A stretch of 64,000 nucleotides of DNA from Obrimoposthia wandeli (GCA_977020255.1 CDROCS010001419.1:372001-436000); one strand, 5' to 3'. Shown: positions 25,201 through 64,000, numbered from the stretch's first letter. Made by a program: numbers and translations. Notes: generated by a model from the letters alone, not told the origin.

Positions 25201-28200
25201 TTTCTTGGTCGACATTACTGAAAAGTTGAATCAATTGAATGTGTCTATGCAGGGAAAGGACAAACTCGTTCACAATCTCTTTGGTGATATCAAGTCGTTT
25301 GAAGCCAAGCTGCTTCTTTGGAAAGGTCAATTGGAGAACAATGTTTTCGATCATTTCCCTTGTCTGAAAGGTCAGAAAGAATTGAAGCCAGAAGGAGGAA
25401 GATACTCCACTGAAATCGAAAAACTCACAGCAGAGTTTTCTCGGCGTTTTCAAGAGTTTCGGGCAAACGAAAATGACTTCAAGATCTTCTCAATGCCTTT
25501 TTCTGTTGATCCAGTGACAGCTCCCACGAATCTGCAGTTAGAATTGATTGATCTGCAGAACAATATGGATTTGAGTGCACAATTCTTGTCAAAACCACTA
25601 GTCGAGTTCTACAAAGACTGTGTCTCTGATGAATCTTCTCCGAACCTTCTTCATCATGCAATGAAAACAGTGACGCTGTTCGGCAGCACTTATCTCTGTG
25701 AGCAATTCTTTTCCAAGTTGAAGTACTGAAAATCGAAGAACAGAAACTCTATTTCAGATGAACATTTGGAAAACACTGAGAATCGCTTCCTCGGGGATGA
25801 AACCAGACATATGCGCTATTATGAATCAGAAGAAGCAGTTCCCATTGACAGGAATTGTACAGTTATACGTGAAATACAGTCTTTTTAGCCCTGTCATGTG
25901 GTTGTTTTAGGGATTTTTTATGAACTGTGGTTTTTTTTTCGCATTTCTGGCCCCGAGCGTTCAAAAAATCTACATTTTGGCCCGCCAAATGAAAAGTTTC
26001 CCGGGCACTGGTTTACATGCTTAGGTTTCATCATTCAAAAAATGTCTATAATTTTAACTCTGATTCGAATTTATTTTTTAAGCGTTTTCAAATGATAAAT
26101 ACACTCTAATTTGTATTTTTAATTATATATATTTTTATAAAATAATTTTAAGTTTAAAGTTAAAAAATAAATTTACGTCATATTCTATTTTTGAAATAAG
26201 GAGTCATTTGAAATTTTAGAAAGGATTCAAAAAGTTTAAAAGTTTGGTATCCTCTGGTTTAGAAAAAGGAAGTTGTCATATTGAAAAAAAGTATTGGGGT
26301 TATACGCCCAGAAAAAAGTGAAATTTCTATTTACTAATGATAATTCATATGAATTTACTTCTCTATAATGTCTCATTTAGTGTATTATTTAAATGTTTTA
26401 TTTATAAAGTGAGTAACTCTCCAATTAAGATAGAAAGTTAAATCTTCATGTTTTCATTGTAAATTACTACTTTATATTCAATTGTATTTAGAAATTATGT
26501 ACTATATATAATTTAATACCCAGATAGTTTGTTCAAAAACTATTTTATTTAAAAATAAGTTGGTTCAAAAATAACCCTTAACCCAAACTAAATTATTTTT
26601 TAAATAAATTTTTTTGTTCCAACTATTTGGGTATCGAAAATGTTAAAGTGACTAAGATTTGCGAACATATGTAGTCGTCGATGTTCAATTTGACCTGTTA
26701 TTTTCTGTTTGATTTGTAGTCAAATGACGATACTTAAATTGACTGCATATAATTAAAATCGATATTCATATTTTGTGCAGTCAATCGTTGTTTCACAAAC
26801 AGGTAGTACAGTCAAATTGCCCTTGAATAGTTGGATATTATGACAAGAACTATGCAGCATAATTTACAATGATTCTGAGACCTTTTTGTGTAGGAACGCC
26901 TTTGCGAGAAATGCACTCCGAAACAGGACCAAGTGTGTGTAGTGTTTGACCTTGGCGGTTTCACAATGTCGAACATGGATTATGCTTTTGTGCGCCAACT
27001 GATGCATCTGTTCACGACCTACTACCCGGAGCGTCTGGGTGTCTGTCTCGTCACCAATGCGCCATACATCTTCCAAGGGTGCTGGCTCATCGTTCGCAGA
27101 TGGTCAGTCATCTCGAAATACTGACATTTTTAATGCCTAATTTTATTTTTAATCGCATCAAACTTTTATTTTATTCAAAATCATAGCAAAAATATTTATA
27201 ATTAAATTATTATTGTATGTGTAGATATCGGATACATTAGTAATATAAAAAGTGTTTCGAAGCCATATCCTCTGGCGATGCGCTTCACACTGAATGGTAG
27301 TAATTTCCAAAGGAGGCATGCGAAAGGAGACATGAGAAGTTTAACTGAAATGTAATTTCCATAACCTATATAAATAAAAATATATGTACATATACTAATT
27401 TTTAGAATATTATAATAAACTATATTAAACAAGCACATCAATCGCATTAGAAATGAATATGTATATACAGGGTAAAACCTTGTTACTATTTCGTTAACAC
27501 GTTTTTTGTCTCATTTTTGTCTTATTAGATTTTTTTCATTTAAAAATGTGCCTTTGATACTTGATTAAATATAGAGGATGTGCCAATATTCGATCTTTCT
27601 CAAAGGGAAGCGTAGTTACATAAACATTGAAAAGCACTACCGTAGGGCGTACTTGGGACAATCTATATTTTTAATTATGTTTTTTTTCATTAAAATAGAC
27701 ACTCAACTTCGAAAGACAACACTTTTAATACCCACTTATGTAGCCTGGTGAGCTACATCTTTGAATTCTCGAGGATGATGAACATGATTAAATAAACTTT
27801 TGTTAAAATCGGTCATGTGTGAGATAAATGAGGATACGTCTTCAGACAGATACCTCATTTTCAAATCTGATTTTCTATCCTACTGAAACTACAGGGTGGT
27901 CCGTAGAAAACCAAAGGATTTAAATAAATTTATTTACATTTATAATAAATGTTCAAAATGTTTTCCTTCATTATCCCGACATGTTTGAAGACGTTTTATC
28001 CATGATGATGTAGCTTTTCGTATGGTATCCAGACTAATATTATCCCAAGCTTGCGTTAAAAATAGTTTGAGTTCATCGATTGTGGAAACCTCTTCGCGTA
28101 CTAACTGCAATTCATGTAGCACTATTCCCCAAATAGCATAGTCCATAACATTTAAGTCTGGACTTTTTGAGGGCCAATCAAGTGGCATAATTAAACTTGG

Positions 28201-29632
28201 TACATTCTCTTGAAGCCATGAAATAGTCGCATTGGCTGTGTGTGCTGTAGCGCCATCTTGTTGCCAAATCCACGATTCACCATCCATTACGTTGATTATG
28301 TCTTGGAACATTGGGGGGAACATCTCATTACGATACACATGCTGATTAACTGTTTTCTTTTTTCTTTTTGAAGAACCAACATTATTCGGTACTTCAGCGA
28401 AGCCTTCAATAAATCTTAGTTGTGATTTTCCATGCCACGATACTGCACCATAAATCATTATTGATGGCTGCTGTCGATCAACTTCAACAATTAATTCTTC
28501 GTTTGGAATATCGGTTTTCACCGTAACTTCTCTGTATATGCGTTCATTTTGACTATTTATTGGAGGAGAGATATTGAATGAGGCTTCATCAGAGAACCAA
28601 ACTTTTTTCCATAAATCCTCATGTTGGAAACGTTCTAGCAAGTTAATTGATTTCAAGTTTCGAGCTTCTTTGTGACGTTCTGTCAGTTTGTGACATTGTA
28701 TACGTTTATAACATTTTAGAGAACATATTCGTAATTCTCTAAAGACTGATGTCTTTGATATTCCTAATTTTTTAGCAATTTGTCTTTGGCTGCTATGCCT
28801 ATGACGAGGACTGCTTACAGGGGTTACAGCCAGTGCTTTTATTTCCTGCTTCATTGGAGTAGTTATTATTTTTAAACTTCCTGATCCTTTCTTTCTTTTT
28901 TTAGCCATCTTCAACCGAACACATGCTGCATAAAACTGATTTTCAGTTATTTTACTAAAAAACTGGGGTAAAATGCTTTTACATTTTTCAAGTCCCCACT
29001 TAGGATTTTCTTCTTTAAATAAAATAATTACTTGCCTTTGAAAATTAGAAATTTGTGGCGTCATAATTTAAATCTAATAAAATTTTAATATTTTATAATA
29101 TTTAAAACTTACATTTATTGAAAATAGATAAAAATAATTCTTTTAAACAAATCCTTTGGTTTTCTACGGACCACCCTGTAATTCAACAGCATGTTTGTTC
29201 ACACTCACAGAACACAAATTCAACAAGGAAAAGTCTTCACTTATCCTTGATCTGTTTTATATAGATACAAAGATACCCACATTCACTAAACATCCAATGT
29301 TTCAGAGCCAGGATAACTCATTACAATGTGCCTTTCCTATTTATTATGTAATTTCTATTTAAGTTAGTTATAGATAAATTCATTTTTTATTGAAATAAAA
29401 TGCGTCAAACTATTTGATAGAATTGAAATTATGTCAGAGAAATAAAAGGGTAAACCTGTAATTGTTGTCGATATGGTAGATGTCGAAGCGGGGGAATCCT
29501 GGTGCAGTTTCTTTGTTAACAGAGTTTCACCATATTGCTTTCAGGATGTCTGAGGTGACCCAGAAGAAGATTGTGTTCTGCAACTCTATAGAGCAGCTTT
29601 CCATCTACCTGGACCCGATTATTCTTCCATAG
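1238..29632 (+). CDS. CRAL-TRIO (Sec14-like) lipid-binding/transfer protein gene, 6 coding exons, 219 aa
   Basis: Exons 1238-1291, 1328-1354, 1397-1593, 10611-10695, 26894-27102 and 29545-29632 all have GT-AG introns with matching phases and join to 660 nt. The product reads [42 protein letters not shown]...[12 protein letters not shown]...[17 protein letters not shown]...KYMIFII-ERLC...[17 protein letters not shown]...[40 protein letters not shown]...YLDPIILP*, a typical CRAL-TRIO N-domain plus Sec14 domain. Confidence 0.9.
1328..1354 (+). CDS. CRAL-TRIO gene 27-nt micro-exon 2 (NNFNDEELD)
   Basis: Acceptor ttttag at 1327 and donor gttagt at 1355, phase 0 on both sides; it could also be skipped without a frameshift. 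Confidence 0.5.
1397..1593 (+). CDS. CRAL-TRIO gene exon 3 (CRAL-TRIO N-terminal domain)
   Basis: Acceptor atttag; [11 protein letters not shown]...YLIWRKDF motif; phase-2 donor AG|gtaata. Confidence 0.85.
1678..5351 (-). mobile_element. Foldback/MuDR-like DNA element with ~535-bp terminal inverted repeats and a decayed internal gene
   Basis: About 1678-2212 is the reverse complement of about 4812-5351 over hundreds of bases. The interior has broken minus-strand coding blocks. No TSD identified. Confidence 0.75.
2634..2900 (-). pseudogene. Spliced PHD-finger relic at the 3' end of the foldback element's internal gene
   Basis: Reads [21 protein letters not shown] / intron / [34 protein letters not shown] (C4HC3). 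The junction is one base short of a clean W-I splice. Confidence 0.75.
8330..8830 (+). mobile_element. Non-LTR retrotransposon 3' relic with restriction-like endonuclease (R2/R4/NeSL-type)
   Basis: CCHC remnant (YGCK...ETVSH...RHDMVV), then RPDITV...EI*VPFD...KYQNL...KVGTLGFW, matching the PD-(D/E)xK RLE domain; stops present. Confidence 0.7.
9189..9211. repeat. (AT)n microsatellite
   Basis: Uninterrupted AT run. Confidence 0.9.
10611..10695 (+). CDS. CRAL-TRIO gene exon 4 ([29 protein letters not shown])
   Basis: Acceptor tttacag and donor gtgagt; completes the split Arg codon and supplies the missing 'RP+Y' strand of Sec14. Confidence 0.88.
11040..11320 (+). mobile_element. DNA transposase C-terminal relic, Chapaev3/Transib-like (CMC)
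   Basis: [41 protein letters not shown] matches the KxHFLHSHLDFFP..[15 protein letters not shown] motif; superfamily name is from memory. Confidence 0.6.
12970..13133 (-). repeat. BEL/Pao 3' LTR (alignable part)
   Basis: Begins TGTTGG on the minus strand right after the PPT; homologous to about 18545-18699. Confidence 0.75.
18351..18699 (-). repeat. BEL/Pao 5' LTR
   Basis: TGTTG...AAACA on the minus strand, followed by gttttggtt (PBS-like position); similar to 12970-13133 but diverged. Confidence 0.7.
18900..19078. mobile_element. Tc1/mariner-type MITE
   Basis: 22-bp TIR CAGTAATTATTCACCT(A/G)TAAGG with one mismatch, flanked by TA on both sides; non-coding interior. Confidence 0.9.
23751..26010 (+). 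mobile_element. Full-length hAT transposon, SPIN/GTF2IRD2-type
   Basis: TIR CAG(C/T)GCCCGGGAAA; perfect 8-bp TSD GTTTACAT at 23743-50 and 26011-18; subterminal GGCCC repeats. Confidence 0.95.
24056..25890 (+). pseudogene. hAT transposase (BED-like zinc finger, DDE, dimerisation domain) with two nonsense codons and a terminal frameshift
   Basis: ORFs 24056-24424 and 24428-25729 are in the same frame, split by one TAG. Motifs CLIC...[30 protein letters not shown] at 25727 is followed by the [13 protein letters not shown] tail and a frameshift. Confidence 0.92.
26894..27102 (+). CDS. CRAL-TRIO gene exon 5 (Sec14 core)
   Basis: Acceptor ttgtgtag; VFDLGGF..NMD and YYPERLG..NAPYIF motifs; phase-2 donor TG|gtcagt. 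Confidence 0.92.
27892..29178 (-). mobile_element. Intact Tc1/mariner superfamily transposon, DD37D (maT) family
   Basis: Perfect 30-bp TIR CAGGGTGGTCCGTAGAAAACCAAAGGATTT, TA target duplications, 1287 bp. Confidence 0.95.
27940..29064 (-). CDS. DD37D transposase, 374 aa, uninterrupted
   Basis: [17 protein letters not shown] and [13 protein letters not shown], with 37 residues between the second and third Asp; HTH region in the N-half. Confidence 0.95.
   Translation of the reverse strand: MTPQISNFQRQVIILFKEENPKWGLEKCKSILPQFFSKITENQFYAACVRLKMAKKRKKGSGSLKIITTPMKQEIKALAVTPVSSPRHRHSSQRQIAKKLGISKTSVFRELRICSLKCYKRIQCHKLTERHKEARNLKSINLLERFQHEDLWKKVWFSDEASFNISPPINSQNERIYREVTVKTDIPNEELIVEVDRQQPSIMIYGAVSWHGKSQLRFIEGFAEVPNNVGSSKRKKKTVNQHVYRNEMFPPMFQDIINVMDGESWIWQQDGATAHTANATISWLQENVPSLIMPLDWPSKSPDLNVMDYAIWGIVLHELQLVREEVSTIDELKLFLTQAWDNISLDTIRKATSSWIKRLQTCRDNEGKHFEHLL
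29545..29632 (+). CDS. CRAL-TRIO gene terminal exon 6
   Basis: Acceptor ctttcag; the first G completes Trp; [11 protein letters not shown]...YLDPIILP then TAG; AATAAA signals near 29884 and 29931. Confidence 0.88.
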
Positions 29633-36980: not shown

Positions 36981-39020
36981 ATGTCCATAATGAGTAATAC
37001 ATTGAGATTTATTGTGAAGAAATTGTGGTTGTATGAAATAAGTCTGGCATCAAAGATCGGTATTGGAGATAATATTGTGAAATTTGCGCTAGTCGCTGGC
37101 CTGCCTTCAGACACTTCAGAAGCTCTGGAGATTTCGATGAAGTCTGGAAACTGTTCCTTAGAGCAAGTTATAGCTGAAGCCCGGATTAGGATGACAAAAT
37201 TGGAATTAAAGGTATCTTCCAAGTTGGAGATGTCGCAGCTCATTATAGAAAAAGGATAATTAGTTCCGGAATCAAATGCTTCCGATGTGGAGATGAAAGC
37301 CATGTTTCTAGAAACTGCTATGTGGAAGAAAAACGCAGATGCTACATCTGTAATATAGTTGGTCACTTGGCGTCAGTATGTCCCAAACGAGAATCAAAAA
37401 ACCACGAAGGGAGTTCGTATGCGCCAGCAGCTCTCCCAATGATACGGCGTATATTCCAACAGTTATCATCCATGTTGAAACTAAAGCTTTAAGAGCAATG
37501 GTTGATACGGGAAGTCGTGGATGTCGTGGACAAGGATTTCCATGCAAAGTTCGAGAATGGCAGATGGATGGCGAGATGGGAATGGAAAGAAGGAATCATG
37601 AAGCCAGCTCTACAGAACCAGGTAAGTCAATATCGGGTAAAGGATGAGGCACTAAATCAATTTGAAGAAGAGATTGAAGAATGGATAGAACAAAGTTGTC
37701 TGAGAAAGTATGATGGTGAGCACATTGGTGTAATACCTTCCATGGGCGTTCTACAGCAAATCAAAGGAAAAGTTCGTCCTGTGATGGATTACCGAGAGCT
37801 TAACGATTATGTTTCCAGCCATACAGCTCAAAGTTAAGTATGCGGCGAAAAGCTGAGAGAAAGGAGGAGATTGGGAGACAACTTGAGCATTGTTGATTTA
37901 AGGAAGGCTTATCTACAAATCCATGTTGACCCAAGTCTGTGGAAGTATCAGGTTTTATTTTACAAAGGAGTTCGATACTGTTTAACGCGTCTTGGTTTTG
38001 GACTCAACGTAGCTCCAAAGATTATGTCAGCAATCGTAAGGAAAGTTTTGTCAATGGATCAGACGGTGGCGAGTGGAACGGATTCTTACGTAGATGATAT
38101 AGTTGTTAATGAAGAGGTAGTATCTACTGAAGAGGTTATAAATATGTTATTAAAGTACGGTTTGGAATCGAAGCCGCCAGAAAAACTGAATGGTGGTAGA
38201 GTGCTGGGACTGCAAATTCAACAAAACCAAAATGTGATGGTATGGAAGTGCGACAATGTACTAGCTAAAGTGAATGACACTTTAACACGAAGGCAAATGT
38301 TTTCTCATTGCGGTCAAATGATTGGACACTTTCTCAAAGTTGGATGGTTGAGACCGGCGTGTAGTTATTTGAAAAGATTGACAAATGGTACTAATTGGGA
38401 AGACAACGTCGAGACCAAAATTGTTGAAAAGCTAAAAGAAATTGAGGAACGTGTTTCGGAAAACGATCCTGTGCGATGAGTCTGGAGTGACTGATACGAT
38501 TGAATGAACAGTATGGTGTGATGCTAGTAGTCTCGCAATGGGAGTCGTAGTGGAAATTGATGGTTCGGTAGTTGAAGACTTCAGTTGGTTACGGAAAGAA
38601 GATGACTCCTCTCATATCAATTTGGTAGAGTTAGAAGCAGTTGTCAAAGGACTTAATTATGCGATCAAAGGGAGGCTGTCGCAAATTCTTGTTTATGCAG
38701 ATTCATCTACGGTCCATGGTTAGATAAAGTAAATTACATCGGGATACAAACGAGTAAAAACGGATGGTCTTGGATTGGCACTAGCTAATAGGCGACTGAA
38801 TCTATTGAAAACCATAATAGAAGAATGCAGACTAACTGTTAATATCAGGCTAGTAAAGTCATCAGGAAACAAAGCCGATGAGCTTACCAGAGTTTCCCAA
38901 AAGTGGCTCAATTGTGCAAGTGTGGCATGCAGTAGCGTAATCGGCAAAGAAGCAGAAATATTGGCAGTACACAAGCTGAATCATTTTGGCGTTGACAGAA
39001 CGGCCAGAGACAATTGCGAA
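36981..39020 (+). mobile_element. Ty3/Gypsy retrotransposon fragment (gag with two CCHC knuckles, protease start, RT, RNase H, integrase start)
   Basis: CFRCGDESHVSRNC and CYICNIVGHLASVC; MVDTGS; VMDYRELN, DLRKAYLQI, RLGFGLNVAP, YVDDI; WCDASSL, HINLVELEAV; HKLNHFGVDRT; several stops and a deletion. Confidence 0.9.
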
Positions 39021-50720: not shown

Positions 50721-51335
50721 TGGATATCGTACAATTTGATAAACATATAAATTTGATATCGTAAAATTTGATATCATATACTTTGATTTGAAAGCCTCTA
50801 TAAATTAGAGCAAGTTTGTAATCGTTAAATTACTAGAAAGACTCTATAAATTAGAGCAAGTTTTGATTTTGTGCAATCACCAATATACTAGAAAGACTTT
50901 ATAAACCTTCAACCCTAAAATTAAAATCGATACGTGGATCAATCCCACTTGTGTAGAGACTTACAGAAGTCTTAGGAATTTTATTGTAACTTTTTAGAAA
51001 TACGTACTTAAACGTATTAATTCGTGTTAGTCTAGTGTGTTAATAAATAAACGATTTCCTACAACTAGAAAGCATCGTTCTAACCCCTTCAGATTAAGAC
51101 ACAACAAAAAACCTTCAGATAAGAATTGAGACAGGCAAGCATAACATTAAGTAGGCCACAACCAACCTTAAGTCCTGCGTCTATAGAACTCACGTTGGGG
51201 CCCTCCATTCAAGAGGATCTATATTAGAACACAGTTTCATATAGAAACCCCAACAATACTATATATTTTAAAATATACAAACATTTAAATTCATCAAATA
51301 TTTTCTTTTTGATAATCTGTTAGAGTTTGATTGAG

Positions 51336-51593: not shown

Positions 51594-54341
51594 TGGGAAA
51601 GCGGTTATTAAAAACGCAACTCATGATAAGGCGTAATATAGTGAAGCGAGTATTTAGGACAGACAAATAAGTGAAGATAAAGATGGGGAATTATGAGCAA
51701 AGGTAGGCGAATAGCTAAATCGAATTTTGTAAATGGCTATTGAGTTGGAAGAAGAAAACCGAGAAGAGGAGTTACAAAGAGATTTAAACGAGTTTGAAAA
51801 ATTACATGTAGGGTTTTGTCACCAAATTGAACAACATACATAAATAGAAATAGAACGTTGAAGAATGTTCAAGTAGAATGAAAGTAAGAAAATATTTAAC
51901 TAAATTAAGAAACTTAACATTGGAAATATTTAATGGAAAGTCCTATGCATATCAATTTAGAAAGCGACATTCAACGTATTGATTTAATATGTGGCGGATG
52001 ATAAGACGAGTTAGCTTCTTCGTCTGCATCAGTATTTGGGACGTGATTTCCGGAATATTTTTATGTAACTTTGTTTTCTGAGTAATTTAAAGGATTCCAA
52101 ATCTATTATACTATATCATTTTCGTTGAAGTTTTGCTATTGATAATTTTCAAAGTGTTGTAATGCCTAAATCTATTGAAGTGTTTTAAAGTGTTATTTTA
52201 CCTTAATTTCAAGAAACCTTTACTAAATTAAGTACAAATTGTGTTTTGTTTTTTAATGAAAATGAAATATTACCATTCACATATTAGTAGCAGGTAATTA
52301 TAGGTAGAAACTTACTTATAAAAGCAAAGTATAGAAAATGCTCTTTCTAAGTCTCAAAATGGATATCAACGTGTCAAAGATAATTTCTCTTGAAAAGAAA
52401 TGATAGCCCCAGAGAAATGTGATCCATTATTCACTTTGACTTTGAGCTGAATGATTAAAGGACATTAAGCTGTAATTGAAGCCTCGGTTAACTTTCACAA
52501 TGTCATTGATAATAAATGTAAAATTGGTTGCGAAGAGTTTCCATTAATTTTGGTAATTATCATTTACAATAATTATTCCAGTGATAAACAAGCAAACACA
52601 TATTACTCTTTTATTAGAAACTTCTTGAACTATCGTAATAACACTATATGAAAGTGTAACTTTTATCAAATTGCACATTTAAAGGTTTCAAAATGTATAA
52701 AGATATTAATTATTTCAAATTTAGTCATTTATTTCTATCAATATCATTTGTATTTTTATCATTGCGTGACATTTATATGACTAGGATCATTTTTAAATCC
52801 CCTTTTTCCCATAACTAAAAATAAATATATATATAACATTACAGTGATCAAAAACACTCATCCAGTTTATCAATGAGGACAGTAGGTAAACTTTAGAAAA
52901 TTTCTATTTTGTACTCATATTGCCTGACATGATCAGAAAGACCATCTTAAAGAATATATTTCTGTTAGAAAAACAATAAAAAAACTACACAAGAAAACAG
53001 CTAAGCAAATTTAGTATTTAATGCCAGTTAACAGACAACAGCCGTACAGATCCTACAGAGAATTTTAGTCATAATATTTCTGATGATTAAGATAATTTCA
53101 ATGGAATCCTGGTTGTGACTTGAATAAAAGTTTAAGTCAAAATGCCAAAAATCAAAATATTTTTTCCTAAAAATTATCTGACACCAGAGAACATGATTTT
53201 GATCCCACTTAACAGACCACAACCGTATACAACAGATGACATATTTCCTGAACCTACAATGATGATTATCATATTCGCCTAATATCTTTGAATGTCATCA
53301 GCAGAGAAAGAATACTTTCATATATGATACCAGATAATTAATATATTATGGTTTTATGGTTTCTAAAAAAAGGAAGTATTTCTAGAAAGATAATATTATT
53401 TTATTAATATCTTATTTTTGTAACGCATTTTGTTATTTTATATTATTTCATACATTTCTATGTATCCTATGTTAAATTCCAAATTTGATAAAAATAATTA
53501 TTTGATAATTAATTATGATAAGAAAATCGTGAATGTGAATAACAGTATTTATCTACATCGTATTAGCAGATAATGAAACGAAAATTTATTGCTACATCTA
53601 CTGAGGTGGAAGAAAAGTTAACTAGCGGTTAGTTTGTCACAAATATTGAAATGGGGATAGAGAAGGCTAAGAAGCACGTTTCAATTAAGACGTTACAGGA
53701 TAGCAATTTGGCTCAACTATTGTCAAATAAAATAATAAAGCTAATATTTAAAGTATTGGACAATATAATTATTCATTATTAATTCTGCGATAATGATGTA
53801 ATTATTGACCTCAACTTCAATAAAAACAATATCGTTAGATTAATAATGAATAATTCTATATTGTTTTCTTTTGTTTGACGGCATTTCAAAATAAATCATG
53901 GTAATTAACTTTTTCCAGTAGTAAGATTCTCAAAATTTTGTAATAATGCAGTAGAATCTTGTGAAATTGAAAACGTAATAGTATAAAAAACATGCTTAAT
54001 CAGTAATTGTAGACAACATGCAACATTGGTATCATATGATACTATGATAACCAAGTGATATAAAATATATAATTTTGACCTATACTCATACAATGTAATT
54101 TGTCATTATTTTTATGCATAGCTAAACAATGTATATAAATTTGGTCAATATACCTAATTAAAATAAACTGAATAAGCATGTACAAAATAATAATACCAAA
54201 TTTGCGAAAACAATTTTGCAAAATTGTCAATTGACTCAAGCATCAATTTTGCAAAATAGTGCTTATTTTATTAATTAGGTAAAAAGAAGCGATTTGCATT
54301 TGTTTTTCTATTTACAAGAATATTTATTTCACAATTTGAAA

Positions 54342-54785
54342 ATGGATCCAATGCGCAAACTATTTGAAGATAAAATAGCCCAGATGATCAAATCCAAAGG
54401 AGTGAATGCCTCTGCTGTGATGTCGAGACAACAGTACGACGAGATCCTGATTCGATTACGACATCTGGAGTCGGATACGGACTCAAAGAAGAGTGCCAAG
54501 GACTATCGACTTATGAGGAAATACGATATTATAGAGTATGGCGTCGACGATACTGCGGTAAGCAAACTCGCAAAAAAAGCTACTGCTTTGCAATTCATCT
54601 GTGTTGATGGGCTCTTCAATGTGACCCATACAAATCATCTCGCTGAAGGACATGGAGGACCACGAATTACATATAGAGCAGTTTGTGAAAAATATGCCAA
54701 TGTAACTCTGGAACAGATTGAGGTGTACCGGAATATATGTGAGGACTGTCAATTGAAGAAAAGCATTAATAGCATTTACCAATAA
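54342..54785 (+). pseudogene. Ginger/KRBA2-SCAND3-like integrase N-terminal fragment (HHCC zinc finger), truncated before the catalytic core
   Basis: HLAEGHGGPRITYRAVCEKYANVTLEQIEVYRNICEDCQLKK; no DDE core follows. Confidence 0.7.
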
Positions 54786-56150
54786 GCAACAACTTTGAGA
54801 AATTGTGGTCAATACAACAATTTGATCTAACATATCTAATGAATATCGAGAAATAGCTTTTAAATTATAAAATAATTACTCATTTCAATTTGTATTTTAA
54901 TACATGTTTTATTCTTTGTTTCAGATATATAGCTATAAATTTAAAAGTGAAGCAAAATCGTTTTCGAAGATGGTTTACTACTTTAGTAATCCTTCTTGAT
55001 GCCAGCGTGTCAATGAAGTTGTTGAAAAAGAAAATGATGCAGAATGAAGATGACAATGAATTCAGAAATGAAGAGAATTCAGATGATGACAGTTATGTTT
55101 TACTTCGTAAACATAATTCAAAAGAGTCAGATTCTACAAACAGAATAATTATTTTAAATACGAACAATTAAACAAATTATATTGGCATGCTGTTTCTGGC
55201 TTCTGATTTGTACATGAGTATGTTGCCAAGAAAACTAAGCCAAATAACCAAAGTTGAATGATGACAGTTAATGGGATTGGAAATTTTGCATATCATATAT
55301 GTTTATAAGCGGTAGCAAAGCTAATTATTATGCAATTGTTTAGTTTGATGTTTTGTGCAAATTGAGCATCATAATACATTTATATCAACAATATTTATAC
55401 TAAAAAATGTAGTTTTTTCAAACTTTTCAATTTTTGATTTGATTACCCCGATTCAAAATAGAATTACACAAAACTAATGTTTAATATGTTTGGTAACAAA
55501 AGAGTTAAATGTATATTTCAACTGTAGCATTTTACGCCCTAGTGAGCTGTTGATATTAATGTTTGCGAAGAATAACTATATATAATAGAATATAAAAGTG
55601 TATTGATAAAATAAATTCGCAGTTTTATATCTTGAAGACAACACAGTTTGTACTAATCACATAGATGAAGAACTATTCAAATATACAGGCATTTTAAAAT
55701 ATTTTATACAGATAAGATAATTTTACATGGTTATCTGATTGTTTATTTAGTAGGAAATGTTTTTAAGTAATGTTGAACAATTATTTAATTTAGGGGAATA
55801 TTATATGGGTAACTTATTACACCATATCTAATGTTTTATTTGTCCTTATAAAACTAAATACATCATTTTAAAGTGCATATAAAATTGGGTTGAGTTCAAA
55901 AGATTCTGCAGTCTGTTTACTTCAAATGCAATTGCTATATAACTGTTGGGGTTTCTATACGAAACTTGGTATAGAGCCTCTTAGTGTGCGGAGGGCCCCA
56001 ACGTGAGTTCGATTAGAAGCAGGTCTTAAAGTTGGTCGTGGCCTACTTAGTGTTATGGTTGCCTAATCTCTTGTACTATCTGAAGGTGTTTGATTTGATG
56101 TCTCTTAGTCTGAAGGGTGTAAAAACAACTTGTTCTAATGTAGGAAATTG

Positions 56151-56156
56151 TTTATT
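56151..56156 (-). terminator. Candidate LTR polyadenylation signal AATAAA
   Basis: Same position relative to the LTR end as the AATAAA in the solo LTR. Confidence 0.5.
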
Positions 56157-56426
56157 CAAAATTCACGTAACTAACACCACAATACGTTTATGTACGTATT
56201 TCTAAAAAGTATGATAAAATTCCTAAAGGACTTCCGTGAGTCTCTACAAGAAGTGGGGATGAACCACGTATCGATTTTACGTTCAGGTGATTAAGTTTCT
56301 TAGGTTTAGTCTTCTTACTCAGGTTGGTTAATCTATAACGCAACTCTCTTAATTTTCTTCGCTCCTACTTCTTATCTCTAGCTAAATGTTTCTTTGTTCC
56401 TTACTCTCTCTGTGTGTGTTTGACCC

Positions 56427-56858
56427 AAATTGTCTACTGTAGACAAGGGATCTCCTAAAAACCTAATTGTCAAGATGACAATAAAAACTTACTCCTAATT
56501 GTCAACTACGGACAATGAACGAACCGAATTGTCAGCTAGTGGACAATGAGTCTTACCGAATTGTCTACTAGGGACAATGAATATTTATCCGAATTACCAA
56601 CTAGGGGCAATGAAGGAACCTAATTGTCAGCTAGGGACAATGAATCTTACGGGAAAAACGTCTGGTAGGTTTCCTAATTGTCGCTGGGGACAATGAATAA
56701 AGGTCCGATCCTAATTACCAACTAGGGGCAATGATTGTGGTAAAGAGACAGTGATCCTAATTACCAGCTAGGGGCAATGAATTTGTGTATGATTAAGAAA
56801 ATATAGAATTACCAACTAGGGGTAATGAATATATCCTAATTGCCTACTAGGGGCAATG
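56427..56858 (-). repeat. Array of 12 palindromic ~23-bp units separated by unique 7-31-nt spacers
   Basis: Minus-strand consensus cATTG(T/C)C-CCTAG(T/C)N-G(A/G)CAATt with a 6-bp stem and usually a 7-nt loop. Confidence 0.9.
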
Positions 56859-56958
56859 ACTGAACCTAGTCTGTGTTCTTACCAGTTACAGCAACTCGTG
56901 GGACGTCCGGTGTAGGGTCCGTATGTGGTGTTTGCGAGCCTGGCGGAATCGTCTTCGA

Positions 56959-57453
56959 AATCGACTGTTCGTCTCTTCAATCAACGGTTCGTCTTCTTAA
57001 ATCAACGGTTCGACTCTTCAATCAACGGTTCGACTCTTCAATCAACGGTTCGACTCTTCAATCAACGGTTCGACTCTTCAATCAACGGTTCGACTCTTCA
57101 ATCAACGGTTCGACTCTTCAATCAACGGTTCGACTCTTCAATCAACGGTTCGACTCTTAAATCAACGGTTCGACTCTTAAATCAACGGTTCGACTCTTAA
57201 ATCAACGGTTCGACTCTTAAATCAACGGTTCGACTCTTAAATCAACGGTTCGACTCTTCAATCAACGGTTCGACTCTTAAATCAACGGTTCGACTCTTCA
57301 ATCAACGGTTCGACTCTTAAATCAACGGTTCGACTCTTCAATCAACGGTTCGACTCTTCAATCAACGGTTCGACTCTTAAATCAACGGTTCGACTCTTCA
57401 ATCAACGGTTCGACTCTTAAATCAACGGTTCGACTCTTAAATCAACGGTTCGT
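56959..57453. repeat. 20-bp tandem array (ATCAACGGTTCGACTCTT[C/A]A), 22 exact units plus flanking degenerate units
   Basis: Exact 20-nt periodicity from 57001 to 57440 with a single variable site. Confidence 0.98.
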
Positions 57454-57531
57454 CTGACGAGGGGATTGTTGCTTCCTGTCTTTGTTTCTTCTGGCGATTC
57501 CGTATTTGTGATTCTAGCTGGAAAACCTGCC

Positions 57532-57539
57532 TTTATATA
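57532..57539 (-). promoter_or_regulatory. Candidate LTR TATA box (TATATAAA)
   Basis: Lies on the minus strand upstream of both arrays, preceded by two GCAGC.GTCAA.TGAT.GAC repeats. Confidence 0.55.
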
Positions 57540-58221
57540 TTGGCACTGGACGTCAATCAGTTGACGGCTGCGTTGAGTCTTTCTTCAGCGAACCCGGAGA
57601 GAATATTGCAATGTCAATCAATTGACAGCTGCAAACAAAATTTAGTTTATTGCACGAAAATGTGCTTACCTTGGGGATCCTTGAGCGACGGTTGTAATTA
57701 ACCGTTTTTCTTTTAATTAACTAAATTTCTTGCGACTTCTGGGTTAATTAATTTAACTTATATACATCTCACATTGTACACGACCTTCGTGGTCCTCCTA
57801 ATTTTACCCTAATATTTCACTATTTTTACTTCTAAAACTTAAATTAATATTTTAATTTAATTTTCGACCTTGCTTTCAAGGATTTTTATTTTAGTATTTA
57901 ATCAACTAAAATATTTAATTTTCTTAATTCTCAACCTTAACATACCTCGGGGGTTCCAAAAAAGTTACGTCCCCGGAACGTATCGATTTTACTTAAATAA
58001 GCCTTTGGCTGTTGATTTTAGGTTCATCCCTACAAAATCAATCATTCAACCTCAACAAACATGCCCAAAAAAATTTTTTCCAAAATCCCGGTTTTTAGTG
58101 GGAAACATAATATATAAGTTGGAACATGTCTCAATTTATACACTATTACTTATAACAACTAAAATTTACATACAAGATTACACGATAACCAAGGTCAGGA
58201 AGGAAAGAAGGGAGGAAAGGA

Positions 58222-58758
58222 TTAATTGTCGTATGTCAAGTCAATTGTAATTGTTGGCTGGTTCCGACTGGCCAGGTAGCGTAGAACCTGTTCCAGGGGA
58301 AGGTCGGGAAAGGACGGACTGTCCCCGTTGTACAAATGGAGTTGCTGGCTCCGGGTCAAATGCGGGCTGTCGATGAACAGGTCGAAGTGCTGCCTGTTCA
58401 TGTTATGGCTTTCAATCCAGTGCCGTCTGGCCTGGAACCACGAGTGGCAGTCTCGACTAGACCGCCATCTCTCGCGGACGCCCAGTTGTGTGTCGCGCCG
58501 GCGTGCGAGACACACGTAGCATTGGCAATGGATGCCACCAATGCAGCTGGCAGGCGATCGGGTGCCTTTGTGTCTTCCGCGGCTCTGGAGTGTCCATTTG
58601 GCGAAGGGTGTCCGGCACAGTGGACAGGTGATTTGTCCGGTGGTTCGAACCTTGGTCCACAAATAGAGGCACTCCTCGTGAAATTTGTGACGGCAGCCGA
58701 CAGGGGATGCTGATACCGCCCAAATCTTCTCCATGCATACGGAGCACAACATCTGCAT
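58222..58758 (-). CDS. RING-H2 protein 3 (178 aa) with a CxCxxC cluster and a C-terminal SIM-like ITIDLT
   Basis: CSVC..CRHKFHEEC..W..CPLC; intact ORF. Confidence 0.9.
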   Translation of the reverse strand: MQMLCSVCMEKIWAVSASPVGCRHKFHEECLYLWTKVRTTGQITCPLCRTPFAKWTLQSRGRHKGTRSPASCIGGIHCQCYVCLARRRDTQLGVRERWRSSRDCHSWFQARRHWIESHNMNRQHFDLFIDSPHLTRSQQLHLYNGDSPSFPDLPLEQVLRYLASRNQPTITIDLTYDN

Positions 58759-59092
58759 GAGAAAATGACTCCTTTCAATTTGGGGTTCACCGTTCTCATC
58801 GTTAATTTAAATTCTATTTCAAAATGAATCCTTAGTTATCTAATCCTACCGAGTTTTGTTTCGATTTTAGGCATGTTTACGCATTCACACTAAGCATAAA
58901 AATTGTCTTTTTTAGAAATTCAGTATAATAATTACAATTTCAGTTAAACATCATACATAAAAATGGTAATGGTCAATTTACAGTTCACAAGATTATATAA
59001 TTATGATTACAATTATGGTAGCTAATTTATCGCGGTATGCGATACACAGGGTAGTTCATGATGTCACGTTCAAGTCAGAAAGTTACCTTCGA

Positions 59093-59398
59093 TTATTGTT
59101 GGGGATTGGGCTGGCCTGTGCTTCGCTCCTCCACGCAGAACGAGCACCAGCAATCGCAGATGGTTTTCCAGCAGTGTACGATGGGTACCACTGCTTGGAG
59201 GCTGTCTTGGTTGTACACGTAGTGTACTGAGAAGGTCGCTCTGCACATCGGGCAGGTTGGGAAGTCGAGGGGATTGTTGCTGTTGGCAATGGGGATCCAC
59301 GTCTCGAGGCATTCGACGTGGAAAAGGTGGTCGCAGTTGTTGGGCTTGGTGTAGAAGTCCACGATGCTCTCGTAGCAGATGGAACATTCTCCAGACAT
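59093..59398 (-). CDS. RING-H2 protein 2 (101 aa) with C-terminal Cys cluster
   Basis: CSIC..CDHLFHVEC..W..CPMC, then CWKTICDCWCSFC. Confidence 0.9.
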   Translation of the reverse strand: MSGECSICYESIVDFYTKPNNCDHLFHVECLETWIPIANSNNPLDFPTCPMCRATFSVHYVYNQDSLQAVVPIVHCWKTICDCWCSFCVEERSTGQPNPQQ

Positions 59399-59458
59399 TA
59401 CTGTGGGAGGGTTGATGTTGAATTTGGGCTCGATTGAGGACTGGTGGTTGTGTGATCT

Positions 59459-59758
59459 TTACACAAAAGTGGTCTGATTTTGTCGATCTGACAAACAGTA
59501 ATAACACCAACACTCTCCGAAATTCTTCCAGCAGAATACCACCTGTACATATACATCCCTTTGGTTGGGTTCTAACATGACGAATCTTGCGAATTGTCTT
59601 CTGCATATAGGGCAACGAGGGTATGTTGGGTGTCCGAACTGTCCATAAGTTCTGATCCATGTCGATAAACATTCCTCGTGGTGTAAATGGTTGCAGGTTT
59701 CGGGTCTTGTTCTTCGTTCGGTTAGATCTTCTAAACATATTGGGCATTCTTCGGCCAT
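59459..59758 (-). CDS. RING-H2 protein 1 (99 aa) with C-terminal Cys cluster
   Basis: CPIC..CNHLHHEEC..W..CPIC, then CWKNFGECWCYYC. Confidence 0.9.
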   Translation of the reverse strand: MAEECPICLEDLTERRTRPETCNHLHHEECLSTWIRTYGQFGHPTYPRCPICRRQFARFVMLEPNQRDVYVQVVFCWKNFGECWCYYCLSDRQNQTTFV

Positions 59759-59794
59759 TCTAAATACATGATGATGATTAATTTCTACATGAGT

Positions 59795-59802
59795 TTTATA
59801 TA
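59795..59802 (-). promoter_or_regulatory. Candidate internal TATA box for the RING cluster
   Basis: TATATAAA about 37 nt upstream of the RING1 ATG, in an AT-rich spacer. Confidence 0.45.
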
Positions 59803-59881
59803 CTGCTACTATTTGTACAATCGCTTCTAGATATTTCTACATATTTCACACACTAATTTATCTACAACCTCCTCTGACTCA

Positions 59882-62134
59882 TCATATCTTGATGGGAGGT
59901 GGAGGTAAGGGTCGCAATTCCACTTCCTCCATGATGGGTGTGTCACAGCATCGCAATCCTTCGCATTTTCGTCGTATTCCTGGGCATACTTGACTGCCTT
60001 TTACGCACACGATTGTAAGTAGAACCACCGCTGTTGACACTACGGCCATTCCAATTAGGGCATTGACTGCTGTTATTCCGCTGTCTGATGTTTTATAATC
60101 ATACTTCATTTTGTTGTTTGTTGGTTCGAATGATATTTCCATGGGTTTTGATCGGTTTCCATGTATTATATCCGATTTTCTAAAAATTCGGGGATTTGGG
60201 TGTTTTGTTTCTGATGGAACAGGTATTATTATTTTGGATTGGAAATGATGTTTGGGATCTAGTGGGATCGTTCCCCTCACTCTTGTCCTCTTAATAATTG
60301 TACTTTGGTTTCTGGGATTGGACTCTTTTTCTTTCGCTTCTGTCTTTGTTTTGATCACTGTCGGTTTCTTGGAATGTCGTTTACTTTCGATTACCTTTGC
60401 CTTCTTTTTGACTAGGATTGGTCTTCTGGGAATGATTTTCCTGGGTTTGATACTTATACCGTATCTGCGAAATCGACGGTTCTGGTATCTTAGAGTTATG
60501 TAGAATATTTCACCTGTTATTATCATGATTATGGTCGAGGTCTCTGTAGAATTACTGGCAATTCGATTACACAGACATTCTGTGTTAAAATGTGGTACTA
60601 ACATTTGGCTTTGGATTTCGAATCTGATTACGCCATCTGGGTTGGGACACATTACTGTCACGCTGTCAGTTTCTAGCAATCTGAAAAATAACCTAACGGA
60701 ATTCCATACGGCTTTACGTCGTCTACCTGTGATCATAATCCTGTCGACAATTTTCCAGATGCGCTCATCTCTAGGTAATATTAATGACTTTGTTCGGATA
60801 CTTTGGATAATCCGCTTCCTCTTTGATATTGTTATCCGTAGGTATAACACTCTTTCATGATGCAATAATATTAAATTGTAAACGGGTGTATGTTGGTCGA
60901 TTTTTATTCTGACCTGTCGGATGACATACAATTTCTGATCGATATTGTCAGTTGCTGACGTCTGTAGATGAATGTCTACTACGTGATTTGTTTTTAGTAG
61001 GGGAATTTCTATGTATATTGCCCGTATTACGTCTTGTCTCCATTTACTGATCATGATCTCATAACTAGCCTTGGTAGTGGTGATTTGTACGATCAGCATG
61101 ATTCCTATGATCGTTCGATTCCTAAACTCAGGAACTTCAATGAAACAAGTCAAATTACTCATATAGTACGGTCTTTCCTCGATGTGTTCGTATATCGTTG
61201 GCTGGTACTCTGGTGCTGGTTCATCTAAAAATGGTGGTCTTGGTATTATTGTGTTGAATTTTTGTAAGTTCATTTGACCTGTTCGTCTTGCGAGATCATG
61301 ACGTTTCTTTTTTGATCTCGACTCTATCTTTGAACAACAAAACAAGATGAGTAATATTAATATTATAAATCCAATGATCAGTGCGAGTATTGGATTAACC
61401 AATTCTAGAATACCATAACGTACTGCTGGTATTCCTTTACTCTTGATGGTTAATATCTTAAATTTGTGTGCACTTTGGTTGGACATGTCACTGAGAAGCA
61501 CTATTTTAGTTTGTCCAAATATGTAGTCTTCACATGTGACAACACTAACTCCATAATGTCCATTAAGTGTTATCATTTCGGTCGCTGGGACTATACACAT
61601 TCGTCCTGGACATCCTTTTACACACATGATCATCACGGCTCTACTGTGGGATGTCTTGATTATTTCTAGAGTGTTGTCTAGATTTCTCAAATGTAAATTA
61701 TATTCGGATAGTGTCATCAATTCGGCTTTACTGGTTGGCATGGCTTGCAGTACCAATCCAATTACTATTCCATAGATCAATCCTTGTGCAACGGTGCACA
61801 GGGCCTTGACTGACCTTTTGCAAAGGGTTTTAATTATCAATCGTTTGAGAGATATCTGCTTCTGATTTGTTCGTTTTGTTGTCTGTCGTTGTTTTGACAT
61901 CTCCTCGATTCCATCTCGTCCGATAATCAACTGTACCGGTTTACCTTGTATCGTCAACTTTCCGAATCCATTTTTGGCGGACAAGCATGTTTTATGTCCT
62001 TCCATTGTTTCAATTATCACTCTCTTACTTCCATACTCACGTGTTTTGATGACATCGCCGTTGAATATATACGTTGGTCCTTTTGTGTCAGCATCTTTTG
62101 TATTTCCTTTACAACTCGTTTTCTCCGCTTGCAT
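59882..62134 (-). CDS. 750-aa membrane polyprotein of unknown family (two signal-like segments, two TM anchors), in an env-like position
   Basis: Uninterrupted ORF with hydrophobic blocks GLIYGIVIGLVLQA, ILALIIGFIILILLILFCC, IIGIMLIVQI and ALIGMAVVSTAVVLLTIVCV. Confidence 0.75.
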   Translation of the reverse strand: MQAEKTSCKGNTKDADTKGPTYIFNGDVIKTREYGSKRVIIETMEGHKTCLSAKNGFGKLTIQGKPVQLIIGRDGIEEMSKQRQTTKRTNQKQISLKRLIIKTLCKRSVKALCTVAQGLIYGIVIGLVLQAMPTSKAELMTLSEYNLHLRNLDNTLEIIKTSHSRAVMIMCVKGCPGRMCIVPATEMITLNGHYGVSVVTCEDYIFGQTKIVLLSDMSNQSAHKFKILTIKSKGIPAVRYGILELVNPILALIIGFIILILLILFCCSKIESRSKKKRHDLARRTGQMNLQKFNTIIPRPPFLDEPAPEYQPTIYEHIEERPYYMSNLTCFIEVPEFRNRTIIGIMLIVQITTTKASYEIMISKWRQDVIRAIYIEIPLLKTNHVVDIHLQTSATDNIDQKLYVIRQVRIKIDQHTPVYNLILLHHERVLYLRITISKRKRIIQSIRTKSLILPRDERIWKIVDRIMITGRRRKAVWNSVRLFFRLLETDSVTVMCPNPDGVIRFEIQSQMLVPHFNTECLCNRIASNSTETSTIIMIITGEIFYITLRYQNRRFRRYGISIKPRKIIPRRPILVKKKAKVIESKRHSKKPTVIKTKTEAKEKESNPRNQSTIIKRTRVRGTIPLDPKHHFQSKIIIPVPSETKHPNPRIFRKSDIIHGNRSKPMEISFEPTNNKMKYDYKTSDSGITAVNALIGMAVVSTAVVLLTIVCVKGSQVCPGIRRKCEGLRCCDTPIMEEVELRPLPPPPIKI

Positions 62135-64000
62135 CCGGCGAATGTTGTTGATATTCGGTCAAGTGTGTGCTGTCGGTCAGCTTCGTAATCTATTCGGAAT
62201 TGATTCAGTATTCTGTTTTGTGGGTAAAATATCGCTTCATTTACTATGTTGTCTTCGATCCTTTCGTCTAGATACACAAGCACTTTGTTCGTTGGTCCAT
62301 TTGGTCTCTTCATCTTTACAAACTGAAATCTTTTACTGTCGGTTCTCATAGATCGAAGACATTTTCGGATGATCCACACATCAATTAGTCCTAACAACAC
62401 TAATAGCATCATCAGTGCCGGTGTATGGTACTGTATGGTGTAATTGTGGATTTCGTTGAACCAGGAACTATTTCCATGGTTGGAGCCTATTTCCTGTGCT
62501 CCCGTTATCGGCATTAAACAACTTAACAAGCCTATCGCTAGCAATCTTTGGTATTGAAAGCTGGGCACTGTTGTTGTAGCTTCATTTGTTTCTCGTTGTT
62601 GTTTCCTCTTTTCGGTGTATTTTTCTATTTCTCGAACGAGTAACGGTTTGAATTCCGTATTCGGTCTATTCTGTTTGATGTAGACCATCGCTTCTTCTGG
62701 CGTGTGACCATGGTACTCTACCAACAAGGATACACCTATGGTAGGCGCTAACATCGTACCTTTTTTCTGATATATCAGAACGCCGTTTCCTTCTGTGACT
62801 TCCGCTTGGATGGTTTGAGTCAATTTCGTCAGATGTTGTTGTGCATCGTTTATCTCTCGATTAGAAGCATGTATGTATCGAGTGGTGTCGTCTTCAGTAT
62901 TTTGACACAGACTAATTATCTCGTTTCCGACTTCAACAATATTGATTACTCGGTTGATACTGTGGAACTTTAATCCAGCAGTATCTATATCTCCTGGATG
63001 ACATAAAAATACTTTTGGCATTATCTGTGTAATTTTGTCGACTCCGGCTAAAAATAACCCAGTCAGTGATAATGCTTGGAGGAAATTCTTTTCCTTTGGA
63101 TCCTCAGGAATGTCGTCCATCCGTCTTTGTTCTTGCAACAGAAGTTGGTAATTTGCCAACTGTCCCAAAAAATTAAGATTTGGGTTTGCAATACTTCTTC
63201 TCTCCTGTAGGTATTTTAACGCTTCTAGTACCTGCATTCGTCTAGTCTTTATTAGATATGCTAATACTAGGGTTGCTGATCGAGAAATTCCTTTCTGACA
63301 ATGTACCAACACTTTTCCTTGGTTTCGGAGTTCTCTGTGAAGTATTTCGTTTGTTTCTACGAACCATTCGAGAAGATTAGCGTCCATTGAGTCTTTTACT
63401 CTTAATGTCATAGCTCTGATCGTCTGGTATTGCGATTTGTGATTCATTGTAACGTTGATCACATATGTTATCCCTTGTTCCAACAGTTTCTTTTCATCTG
63501 TTGCATCCTCCACATTTCCGAGGTATAACTTACCTGGAATGATCTCACTCATTGGTGGCATTAATTCTGACTCTTCAAGTTTTAGTCTTTCTAATCTCTT
63601 CTCTATCTGTTCGTCGATGTTAGTTAGTTTTGCCAGTTTCTTTCCTCTCAGCATTCGTATTGCTGGAGGGATATTCATCTTTGTCTCTGATGTCTGTTCC
63701 TTTGTTGAGTCTTCTTCCGACTCGGTCTCCTCTGCAGATTTAATTCGTCTTTCTTGTATATTCTGTTTCACGAATTCTATATTTTGTCTTTTTCTGCTCT
63801 CTTTAGCGAATTCAACCTCCATGGTTCTTCCGAATCGCTCTATTATGTTATCTTCGGATTCTGTTGATTCTGTATCGTTACTTTCCGGTTCGCTGTCTTC
63901 ACTAGACTCGCTCGAAGGGTATTCTGGTATGTCTGTCTGGACTGAAATTAATGAAGGTGTTAGAATAATTGGATTGATTTCCCCTTCGTATTTGTGAATC
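62017..64000 (-). CDS. Dual-specificity phosphatase plus pseudophosphatase polyprotein with a downstream membrane module; 5'-partial
   Basis: IIPGKLYLGN...VHCQKGISRS...RSIANPNLNF, then a second DSP-fold repeat lacking the catalytic motif. The frame stays open upstream of Met 63822 to the window edge (at least 660 codons). Confidence 0.9.
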   Translation of the reverse strand, partial: IHKYEGEINPIILTPSLISVQTDIPEYPSSESSEDSEPESNDTESTESEDNIIERFGRTMEVEFAKESRKRQNIEFVKQNIQERRIKSAEETESEEDSTKEQTSETKMNIPPAIRMLRGKKLAKLTNIDEQIEKRLERLKLEESELMPPMSEIIPGKLYLGNVEDATDEKKLLEQGITYVINVTMNHKSQYQTIRAMTLRVKDSMDANLLEWFVETNEILHRELRNQGKVLVHCQKGISRSATLVLAYLIKTRRMQVLEALKYLQERRSIANPNLNFLGQLANYQLLLQEQRRMDDIPEDPKEKNFLQALSLTGLFLAGVDKITQIMPKVFLCHPGDIDTAGLKFHSINRVINIVEVGNEIISLCQNTEDDTTRYIHASNREINDAQQHLTKLTQTIQAEVTEGNGVLIYQKKGTMLAPTIGVSLLVEYHGHTPEEAMVYIKQNRPNTEFKPLLVREIEKYTEKRKQQRETNEATTTVPSFQYQRLLAIGLLSCLMPITGAQEIGSNHGNSSWFNEIHNYTIQYHTPALMMLLVLLGLIDVWIIRKCLRSMRTDSKRFQFVKMKRPNGPTNKVLVYLDERIEDNIVNEAIFYPQNRILNQFRIDYEADRQHTLDRISTTFAGCKRRKRVVKEIQKMLTQKDQRIYSTAMSSKHVSMEVRE

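Follow-up and report, generated by a model that had tools for sequence, protein, structure and literature searches.

The window, a stretch of 64,000 nucleotides from Obrimoposthia wandeli (GCA_977020255.1 CDROCS010001419.1:372001-436000), carries on its minus strand a copy of a giant, 22.9-kb Ty3/gypsy element. In the same genome, frame analysis identifies a natural copy consisting of a single frame of 5,478 codons between LTRs, with the first Met at codon 119 and a polyprotein of ca. 5,400 amino acids. The LTRs of this natural copy are 1,721 bp long with TG..CA ends and are 99.88% identical (BLAST). The window copy shares 96.3% identity with it across 20 kb, is interrupted several times, and lies on a contig that ends before the 5' LTR. 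Copy number is high, with at least 137 exact matches to a junction pattern in this genome.

Pfam searches establish the domain order of the polyprotein, beginning with Gag with CCHC, ubiquitin-like and BCL2-like domains, a signal, a gB-type fusion protein and a TM segment, followed by protease-like, BIR and RING domains and then PR, RT, RNase H and IN. Beyond the integrase are a 380-amino-acid region, a DSP, a second, dead DSP and a membrane cassette, with three RING ORFs past the end of the polyprotein. The gB-type fusogen (PF24664, E 5e-94) is located between the CCHC Gag and PR-RT-RH-IN, and the BIR domain is detected at E 2e-9. The ubiquitin (E 0.005) and Bcl-2 (E 0.04) matches are both below the cut-off, at positions published for Burro. 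Two aspartic-protease-like domains are present in the element, one of them between env and BIR; the related proteins P0005, P0006 and P0009 contain three, one being post-integrase. The 380-amino-acid region between integrase and DSP (L026:1143-2282) shows apparent internal repeats, matches no Pfam family and has a shared-variant dN/dS of 0.09.

Within the window, the DSPc phosphatase domain spans 63,145-63,528 (Pfam E 9e-41; residues 158-285 of the frame 62,020-63,999), upstream of the cassette. It is predicted to be cytosolic and has an intact HCxxGxSRS loop (63,277-63,303). A second stretch of DSPc similarity follows at approximately 62,600-63,080 and is catalytically dead by sequence, with YQKKGTMLA replacing the P-loop (62,746-62,772). 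Three small RING-finger ORFs (58,225-59,836; zf-RING_2, E 5e-10, 8e-9 and 8e-8) separate the polyprotein from the 3' LTR. This LTR occupies 55,944-57,942 by BLAST to the 1,721-bp LTR, and a 20-bp array of tandem repeats identified by TRF (56,949-57,455) adds to its length. All of these features are on the minus strand, as is the cassette described below.

The membrane region is the C-terminal end of a Gag-gB-type Env-Pol-phosphatase polyprotein of a Burro-like Ty3/gypsy element. GAG-ENV-POL errantiviruses with an HSV/gB-type env have been described from Platyhelminthes, Nematoda and Bryozoa (Chary and Hayashi, PMC13524379). With these, as presented in the text of that paper, the element shares a PF24664 env between gag and pol, flanking signal and TM segments, LTRs and multiple near-identical copies; its PR-RT-RH-IN order likewise agrees with the group. 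By eye, its env resembles Smed_errantivirus_1, a row of the supplement (PMC13524379), a likeness that together with the layout points to a triclad flatworm as the probable host. The passages of the same paper that were consulted mention no second membrane protein behind the integrase, and nothing fibronectin-like, accessory or phosphatase. Burro/GYPSM1 is a planarian giant gypsy element with a single ORF of ca. 4,900-5,100 amino acids, a length above 30 kb and a very high copy number (PMC6431247). As far as that account goes, both have Gag, ubiquitin-like and BCL2-like domains, an in-frame env between gag and pol, BIR and PR-RT-RH-IN. The element is classed as Burro-like only, because it measures 22.9 kb as opposed to more than 30 kb and its frame has no Pfam match to ankyrin, MATH or Smc. 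The DSP pair, the three post-integrase membrane units and the three RING ORFs are features of this element that section 7 of PMC6431247 does not mention for Burro.

The membrane cassette and the frame break

A first-pass annotation of this DNA described the cassette as an env-position polyprotein predicted to be cut into two type I membrane proteins. The 750-amino-acid frame is indeed present (stop-to-stop 59,882-62,158, ATG at 62,134), as are all the segments described for it, namely the PTSKA↓E signal, a four-Cys ectodomain, a TM with CC, a tail with PRPPF, PAPEY, IYEHI and PYY, the TTTKA↓S signal, a basic ectodomain, a further TM and an LPPPPI tail. As an independent gene it does not hold, being a fragment of the longer polyprotein. 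Among 60 scored copies from the same genome, at 98-100% identity, the match begins at residue 8-9 within a longer frame of 774-5,478 codons in 43, while 17 share the break of the window copy, and this ranking favours copies that share it. Of the 137 junction-pattern matches, 100 were listed; 85 of these are in frame, 10 have the window copy's break and 5 are otherwise out of frame. Twenty loci fetched by likeness to the broken form comprised 16 with the break and 4 that read through. At the break, near 62,095, there is a short run of one base, and copies out of frame in either direction are found. A length variant at this site is found in all four short-read runs at a small share of the depth, with dips in depth and contigs too short for allele counts; the break may be genomic or an assembly error.

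Could the 750-amino-acid ORF nevertheless be translated on its own, from its own ATG, as an env-like gene that is under selection in a subfamily? The recurrence of the break among the top-scoring copies and the listed matches, together with an ATG upstream of it, would fit such a gene. This is contradicted by the predominance of read-through among the listed matches, by frame loss in both directions at a single-base run, by purifying selection on the linker across the break in the continuous frame, by the other interruptions of the window copy and by the presence of the fusogen elsewhere, so that the proposal is very improbable and largely refuted. The start of the ORF is a product of the frame break, and the name env-position polyprotein therefore misleads, given that the gB-type fusogen sits between gag and pol and that read-through copies contain three signal-ectodomain-TM units rather than two. 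The additional unit lies upstream, in the phosphatase frame (62,544-62,368), and what had been called a basic leader is the second half of the 189-residue cytoplasmic tail of membrane protein 1.

Membrane protein 1 begins behind SP1 (62,497-62,544), an internal signal peptide ending PITGA↓Q that is predicted from hydropathy and c-region conservation. Its ectodomain (62,419-62,496) has only 26 amino acids, with an NSS N-glycosylation sequon. TM1 (62,368-62,418) contains an Asp in the window copy and is followed by a polybasic patch (6 K/R on its C side), and the cytoplasmic tail (61,799-62,367), uninterrupted in read-through copies, includes the break site in the window.

Membrane protein 2 follows SP2 (61,724-61,798), a predicted signal ending PTSKA↓E, with a hydrophobic segment of 19 residues and 6 K/R on its N side against 1 on its C side. 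The ectodomain (61,397-61,723) comprises 109 amino acids, with 4 Cys and an NQS sequon. TM2 (61,334-61,396) is strongly hydrophobic (KD 3.5) and ends in FCC, the Cys-Cys pair being predicted, from the motif only, to be palmitoylated. Tail 2 (61,115-61,333) carries KKKRH, EPAPEYQP (core 61,205-61,219) and TIYEHIEE (core 61,181-61,195). To the coupling of Tyr motifs and phosphatase that the first-pass annotation proposed, the analysis adds that both belong to one polyprotein.

Membrane protein 3 is preceded by SP3 (61,067-61,114), the weakest of the three predicted signals, with a core of 11 residues and the end TTTKA↓S. A 199-amino-acid, Ile-rich head (60,470-61,066), predicted to be beta-rich, passes into a basic Thr/Ser/Pro-rich stalk (60,065-60,469; 26% K+R, T+S+P fraction 0.26), the two forming an ectodomain of 334 amino acids with 66 K+R against 29 D+E. 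The last segment (59,882-60,064) contains TM3 and a tail with 4 Cys, which ends LPPPPIKI (FP4-type motif at 59,894-59,908) at the end of the polyprotein.

Six hydrophobic segments thus alternate as signal and TM after the phosphatases. Flanking charge fits the positive-inside rule for this alternating topology at TM1, SP2, TM2 and TM3 (4 K/R on the C side of TM3, 1 on the N side), and is weak or uninformative at SP1 and SP3. The c-regions of SP1 and SP2 (PITGA, PTSKA) have the same form as those of the env signals of relatives (PTTGA, PATGA, PSVKA), SP1 matching the form of the P0005 env signal in particular. Cleavage by signal peptidase into type I proteins, as first annotated, is accordingly supported as a prediction, by hydropathy, by charge at four of the segments, by the small residues conserved at -3 and -1 and by this c-region likeness, with SP3 weak by charge.

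Several short motifs in the tails call for caution. In shuffled tails, PxxP occurs in 56%, YxxPhi in 65%, [IVL]Y[ED]x[ILVP] in 2% and [FYWL]PxPP in 1%, the patterns having been written after the motifs were seen. The Ena/VASP EVH1 motif is [FWYL]PxPhiP (PMC8789275), and LPPPP fits this FP4 type, although the motif is weak and common. A candidate furin site, RFRR at residue 554, was rejected, as it is found in half of the shuffles, is absent from all 30 subfamily-B copies (see below) and is followed by basic sequence. The annotators' remark that the arrangement lacks a furin site and fusion peptide consequently stands. Class I or F-type env features (a conserved furin site with a hydrophobic fusion peptide, or an env Pfam match) were not found in the 750-amino-acid region, where no Pfam family scores above the cut-off.

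Conservation across copies and relatives

The cassette is under purifying selection. Across its nine segments, in up to 29 copies, dN/dS for shared variants (those present in at least 2 copies) ranges from 0.12 to 0.40 and is below that for singletons (0.13-1.09) in 8 of 9; the SP3 value rests on two variants. Individual shared-variant values are 0.12 for tail 1 and 0.21 for head 3, with 0.09 for the DSP and 0.07 for the dead DSP upstream. The stalk of membrane protein 3 is the fastest-evolving part of the cassette (0.38).

A second subfamily, B, represented by 150 scored copies in the same genome of which 30 were fetched, is 70-92% identical to the element depending on the segment; an older, degenerate subfamily was too broken and was left out. 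In subfamily B the three cleavage sites still have small residues, and the Cys residues of the ectodomains and the CC of TM2 are conserved. The SP1 c-region reads PITGA or PTTGA in 22/22 A and 23/27 B copies, and the NSS sequon of protein 1 is present in the same proportions (22/22 A, 23/27 B), while a second sequon, NYT, is absent in B. In tail 2, 78% identical otherwise, KKKRH is kept in about 24/30 to 25/29 B copies and EPAPEYQP and TIYEHIEE in 24/30 each. LPPPPIK persists in 21/28. PRPPF is missing from all four of the commonest B forms, PYY is retained in about 1/29, and the NST sequon in the ectodomain of protein 3 is absent. At SP3 the B site is TTTEA↓G, the small residues at -3 and -1 being constant and those at -2 and +1 variable.

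Beyond this genome's A and B copies, six relatives were counted: P0005, P0006, P0009, P0010, L064 and family S. With env as bait, six longer proteins were recovered, four of which extend past the integrase; P0007 and P0008 end before it and were left out. A metagenome scan covering 36 of 64 parts gave two loci, of which L064 has a complete frame and L063 ends inside env and was not counted. Family S (L039 / L051-L062) is a smaller gag-env-pol family of the O. wandeli genome with at least 150 copies. Their RT-RH-IN regions are 46-57% identical to that of the element (46-54% for family S). A signal-ectodomain-TM-tail unit follows the integrase in five of the six (P0005, P0006, P0010, L064 and family S), the TM of P0005 being above threshold in one hydropathy run and below it in another; P0009 has no signal-ectodomain-TM unit after the integrase within its ORF. 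The five unit-bearing relatives are spread over a seven-row midpoint-rooted tree in which P0005 and P0006 are sisters.

The ectodomains of these units differ. FN3-like motifs are seen by eye in P0005/P0006 and in family S, and those of P0010 and L064 are Cys-rich. Family S has one post-integrase membrane protein, which combines its FN3-like motifs with a Thr-rich stalk and matches nothing in Pfam or PDB. With the exception of P0005 with P0006, hhalign detects no homology between relatives' ectodomains and those of the element or each other (probabilities <2%), and neither BLAST nor hhalign relates the protein-3 head to family S. The best ectodomain pair shares RIW..CP..D..I, a pattern equalled by 4/40 shuffles. 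As the ectodomains are not detectably homologous, the notion of the same attachment protein in all of these elements is one of position and layout only.

The relatives also bear on whether SP3 is a translocation signal at all. If it were not, the basic 334-amino-acid domain would be cytosolic, matrix-like or RNA-binding, anchored C-terminally, and the element would have fewer surface proteins. The brevity of the SP3 core, its lack of clear charge asymmetry, the 66 K+R of the domain and the sequon lost in subfamily B all point this way. Nevertheless, the -3/-1 residues stay constant while their neighbours vary, the charge around TM3 fits a cytosolic tail, and relatives have this arrangement with a signal that is long and clear. 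Basicity is no argument against a luminal location, because the family-S ectodomain is equally basic (58 K+R against 24 D+E). A cytosolic domain is on balance improbable, and a luminal protein 3 behind SP3 is the reading retained here.

Possible roles in attachment and spread

Database searches of the cassette return little. No homologue was found among 6,311 candidates, 7,998 shorter candidates and 1.84 billion representatives; the ESM Atlas gives leads only, below 0.9 (0.79, 0.83), with bunyaviral envelope polyprotein leads below 0.8. Viral contigs contained no relative of the element's env. Pfam, PDB and protein searches produced no match to a conventional host receptor; such a match would have spoken against the original annotation. 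The fold comparison that it had proposed gave no fold, AlphaFold reaching pLDDT 39.7 alone and 37.4 (head of protein 3) with 26 own-genome copies; Foldseek on the latter returned nothing at E≤0.001, a result that is uninformative. The sole PDB sequence match of the protein-3 head is an FcgRIII Ig domain at a sub-threshold E of 0.86, and no FN3 or Ig Pfam match occurs in 26 rows, leaving a beta-sandwich head as a lead only. The ectodomain of membrane protein 2 has no significant Pfam or PDB match. Further sub-threshold matches are to poxvirus 2L (E 0.15) and Pfam WBP-1 (E 0.03; 15.5 bits against a cut-off of 28), and a WBP1/Shisa-like PY adaptor reading of protein 2 finds no [LP]PxY in tail 2.

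In organisation, the cassette is reminiscent of known viral precursors. Glycoprotein precursors processed by signal peptidase include bunyavirus M and the structural polyproteins of alphaviruses and flaviviruses, and internal signals alternate with anchors there as here. Herpesvirus entry is a multi-protein process in which gB acts with gD and gH/gL, so that the element, like herpesviruses, would have a class III fusogen with separate partner proteins. Other class III fusogens, such as rhabdovirus G and baculovirus gp64, function on their own. No sequence or fold kinship was found with those viral precursors or with the herpesvirus partners.

On this evidence the cassette is probably, though far from certainly, cut by the host's signal peptidase to give three type I membrane proteins, which likely act as accessory attachment or cell-to-cell spread proteins beside the gB-type fusogen. 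Every internal signal would direct the ribosome to the ER anew, which would produce the alternating topology and leave Pol and the phosphatases in the cytosol. Since each signal is expected to remain attached to the cytosolic part before it, the two phosphatases and the Tyr tail would end up anchored in one membrane, barring further trimming. Protein 3, with its beta-rich head and basic Thr/Pro-rich stalk, may represent the clade-wide attachment protein and bind a receptor or acidic glycans on the cell surface; proteins 1 and 2 would be additions of this lineage. Tails 1 and 2 (polybasic patch, CC, IYEHI, PAPEY) and the LPPPP of protein 3 could bring in adaptors for trafficking or for actin at sites of budding or of contact between cells.

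The same processing is compatible with a different role, in which the element has captured all three proteins as host-modulating cargo, either decoy receptors or adaptors in signalling, that acts on the expressing cell alongside the phosphatases, BIR, BCL2-like and RING domains and takes no part in entry. The element is rich in signalling and anti-death modules, ectodomains vary from lineage to lineage in the way expected of exchanged cargo, and the FcgRIII, poxvirus 2L and WBP-1 matches are host-like, if weak. All of those matches are below significance, however, and a post-integrase unit is found even in the small relatives P0010, L064 and family S, whose polyproteins otherwise carry little cargo; this fits a role in the core life cycle. 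A cargo function for the three proteins is therefore considered unlikely.

Returning to accessory attachment and spread proteins, similarities exist to FAST proteins and the retrotransposon sORF2, which have an ectodomain of ca. 30 amino acids, a TM and a polybasic patch and are encoded by stand-alone ORFs of 63-200 amino acids (PMC11952523, in the part consulted). Protein 1 is alike in its 26-amino-acid ectodomain, TM and juxtamembrane polybasic patch (9 K/R in 25 residues), and protein 2 resembles FAST in its TM-CC-basic arrangement with a Tyr motif and a weak Pfam match to Orthoreo_P10 (E 0.013). Unlike these proteins as characterised there, protein 1 lacks N-myristoylation (its predicted N-terminus is Gln), is 232 amino acids in length and would be cut from a polyprotein by a predicted signal; furthermore, the element possesses a true fusogen as well. 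For the amphipathic motifs that FAST and sORF2 proteins have in ectodomain and tail, the ectodomain of protein 1 is matched by 97/2,000 shuffles and its tail by 1,319/2,000. The tyrosine tail of FAST p14 recruits actin machinery (PMC7244324), and the Grb2 motif of p14, as given in that source, is absent from the element's tails.

A broader and more speculative proposal, which we regard as rather unlikely when taken as a whole, is that gB-type gag-env-pol retroelements have a hitherto unrecognised two-part entry machine, composed of a pre-pol fusogen and a fast-evolving post-integrase attachment protein. In the present element, a FAST-like small protein and Tyr/EVH1 tails would then drive actin-based spread, tuned by membrane-tethered phosphatases, with four type I proteins in one polyprotein.

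To our knowledge, accounts of envelope-bearing retrotransposons give them a single envelope protein. Within the paper listings and passages searched, nothing describes a membrane protein after the integrase in gag-env-pol elements; such units escape notice since annotation counts them as pol. The novelty lies in the membrane cassette behind the integrase and in meeting such units again in other gag-env-pol elements, the kind of element itself being known. If the proposed role is correct, a second surface protein, held in a fixed place after the integrase across lineages ca. 50% alike in Pol and tripled here, would be a candidate determinant of tropism, and movement of non-insect errantiviruses between cells would become directly testable in a flatworm.

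Terminal repeats and neighbouring remnants

A few bases after the 5' LTR, at L024:6759-6790, lies a primer-binding-site-like sequence, TGGTGCCCCG, which resembles the 3' end of an elongator tRNA-Met, and a 4-bp target-site duplication was noted as well. Inside the LTR of the window copy, a degenerate repeat of ca. 30 bp with a CTAGGGGCAATGA core (56,477-56,850) accompanies the 20-bp array, which has 25 copies; read depth drops sharply in the LTR repeats, suggesting that copies differ. An inverted LTR-end fragment at 50,914-51,265, 78% identical, is probably an older insertion. Short contigs mostly 90-99% like the element, at a depth of 3-10, occur in run X5, labelled marine metagenome, and may derive from host tissue or contamination. 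Remnants of other elements in the window include a hAT-like DUF4371 (24,425-25,729), a Tc1/mariner-like DDE_3 with HTH (27,940-29,067), an RT with DUF7047 (37,838-38,479) and an integrase zinc-finger fragment (54,279-54,785).
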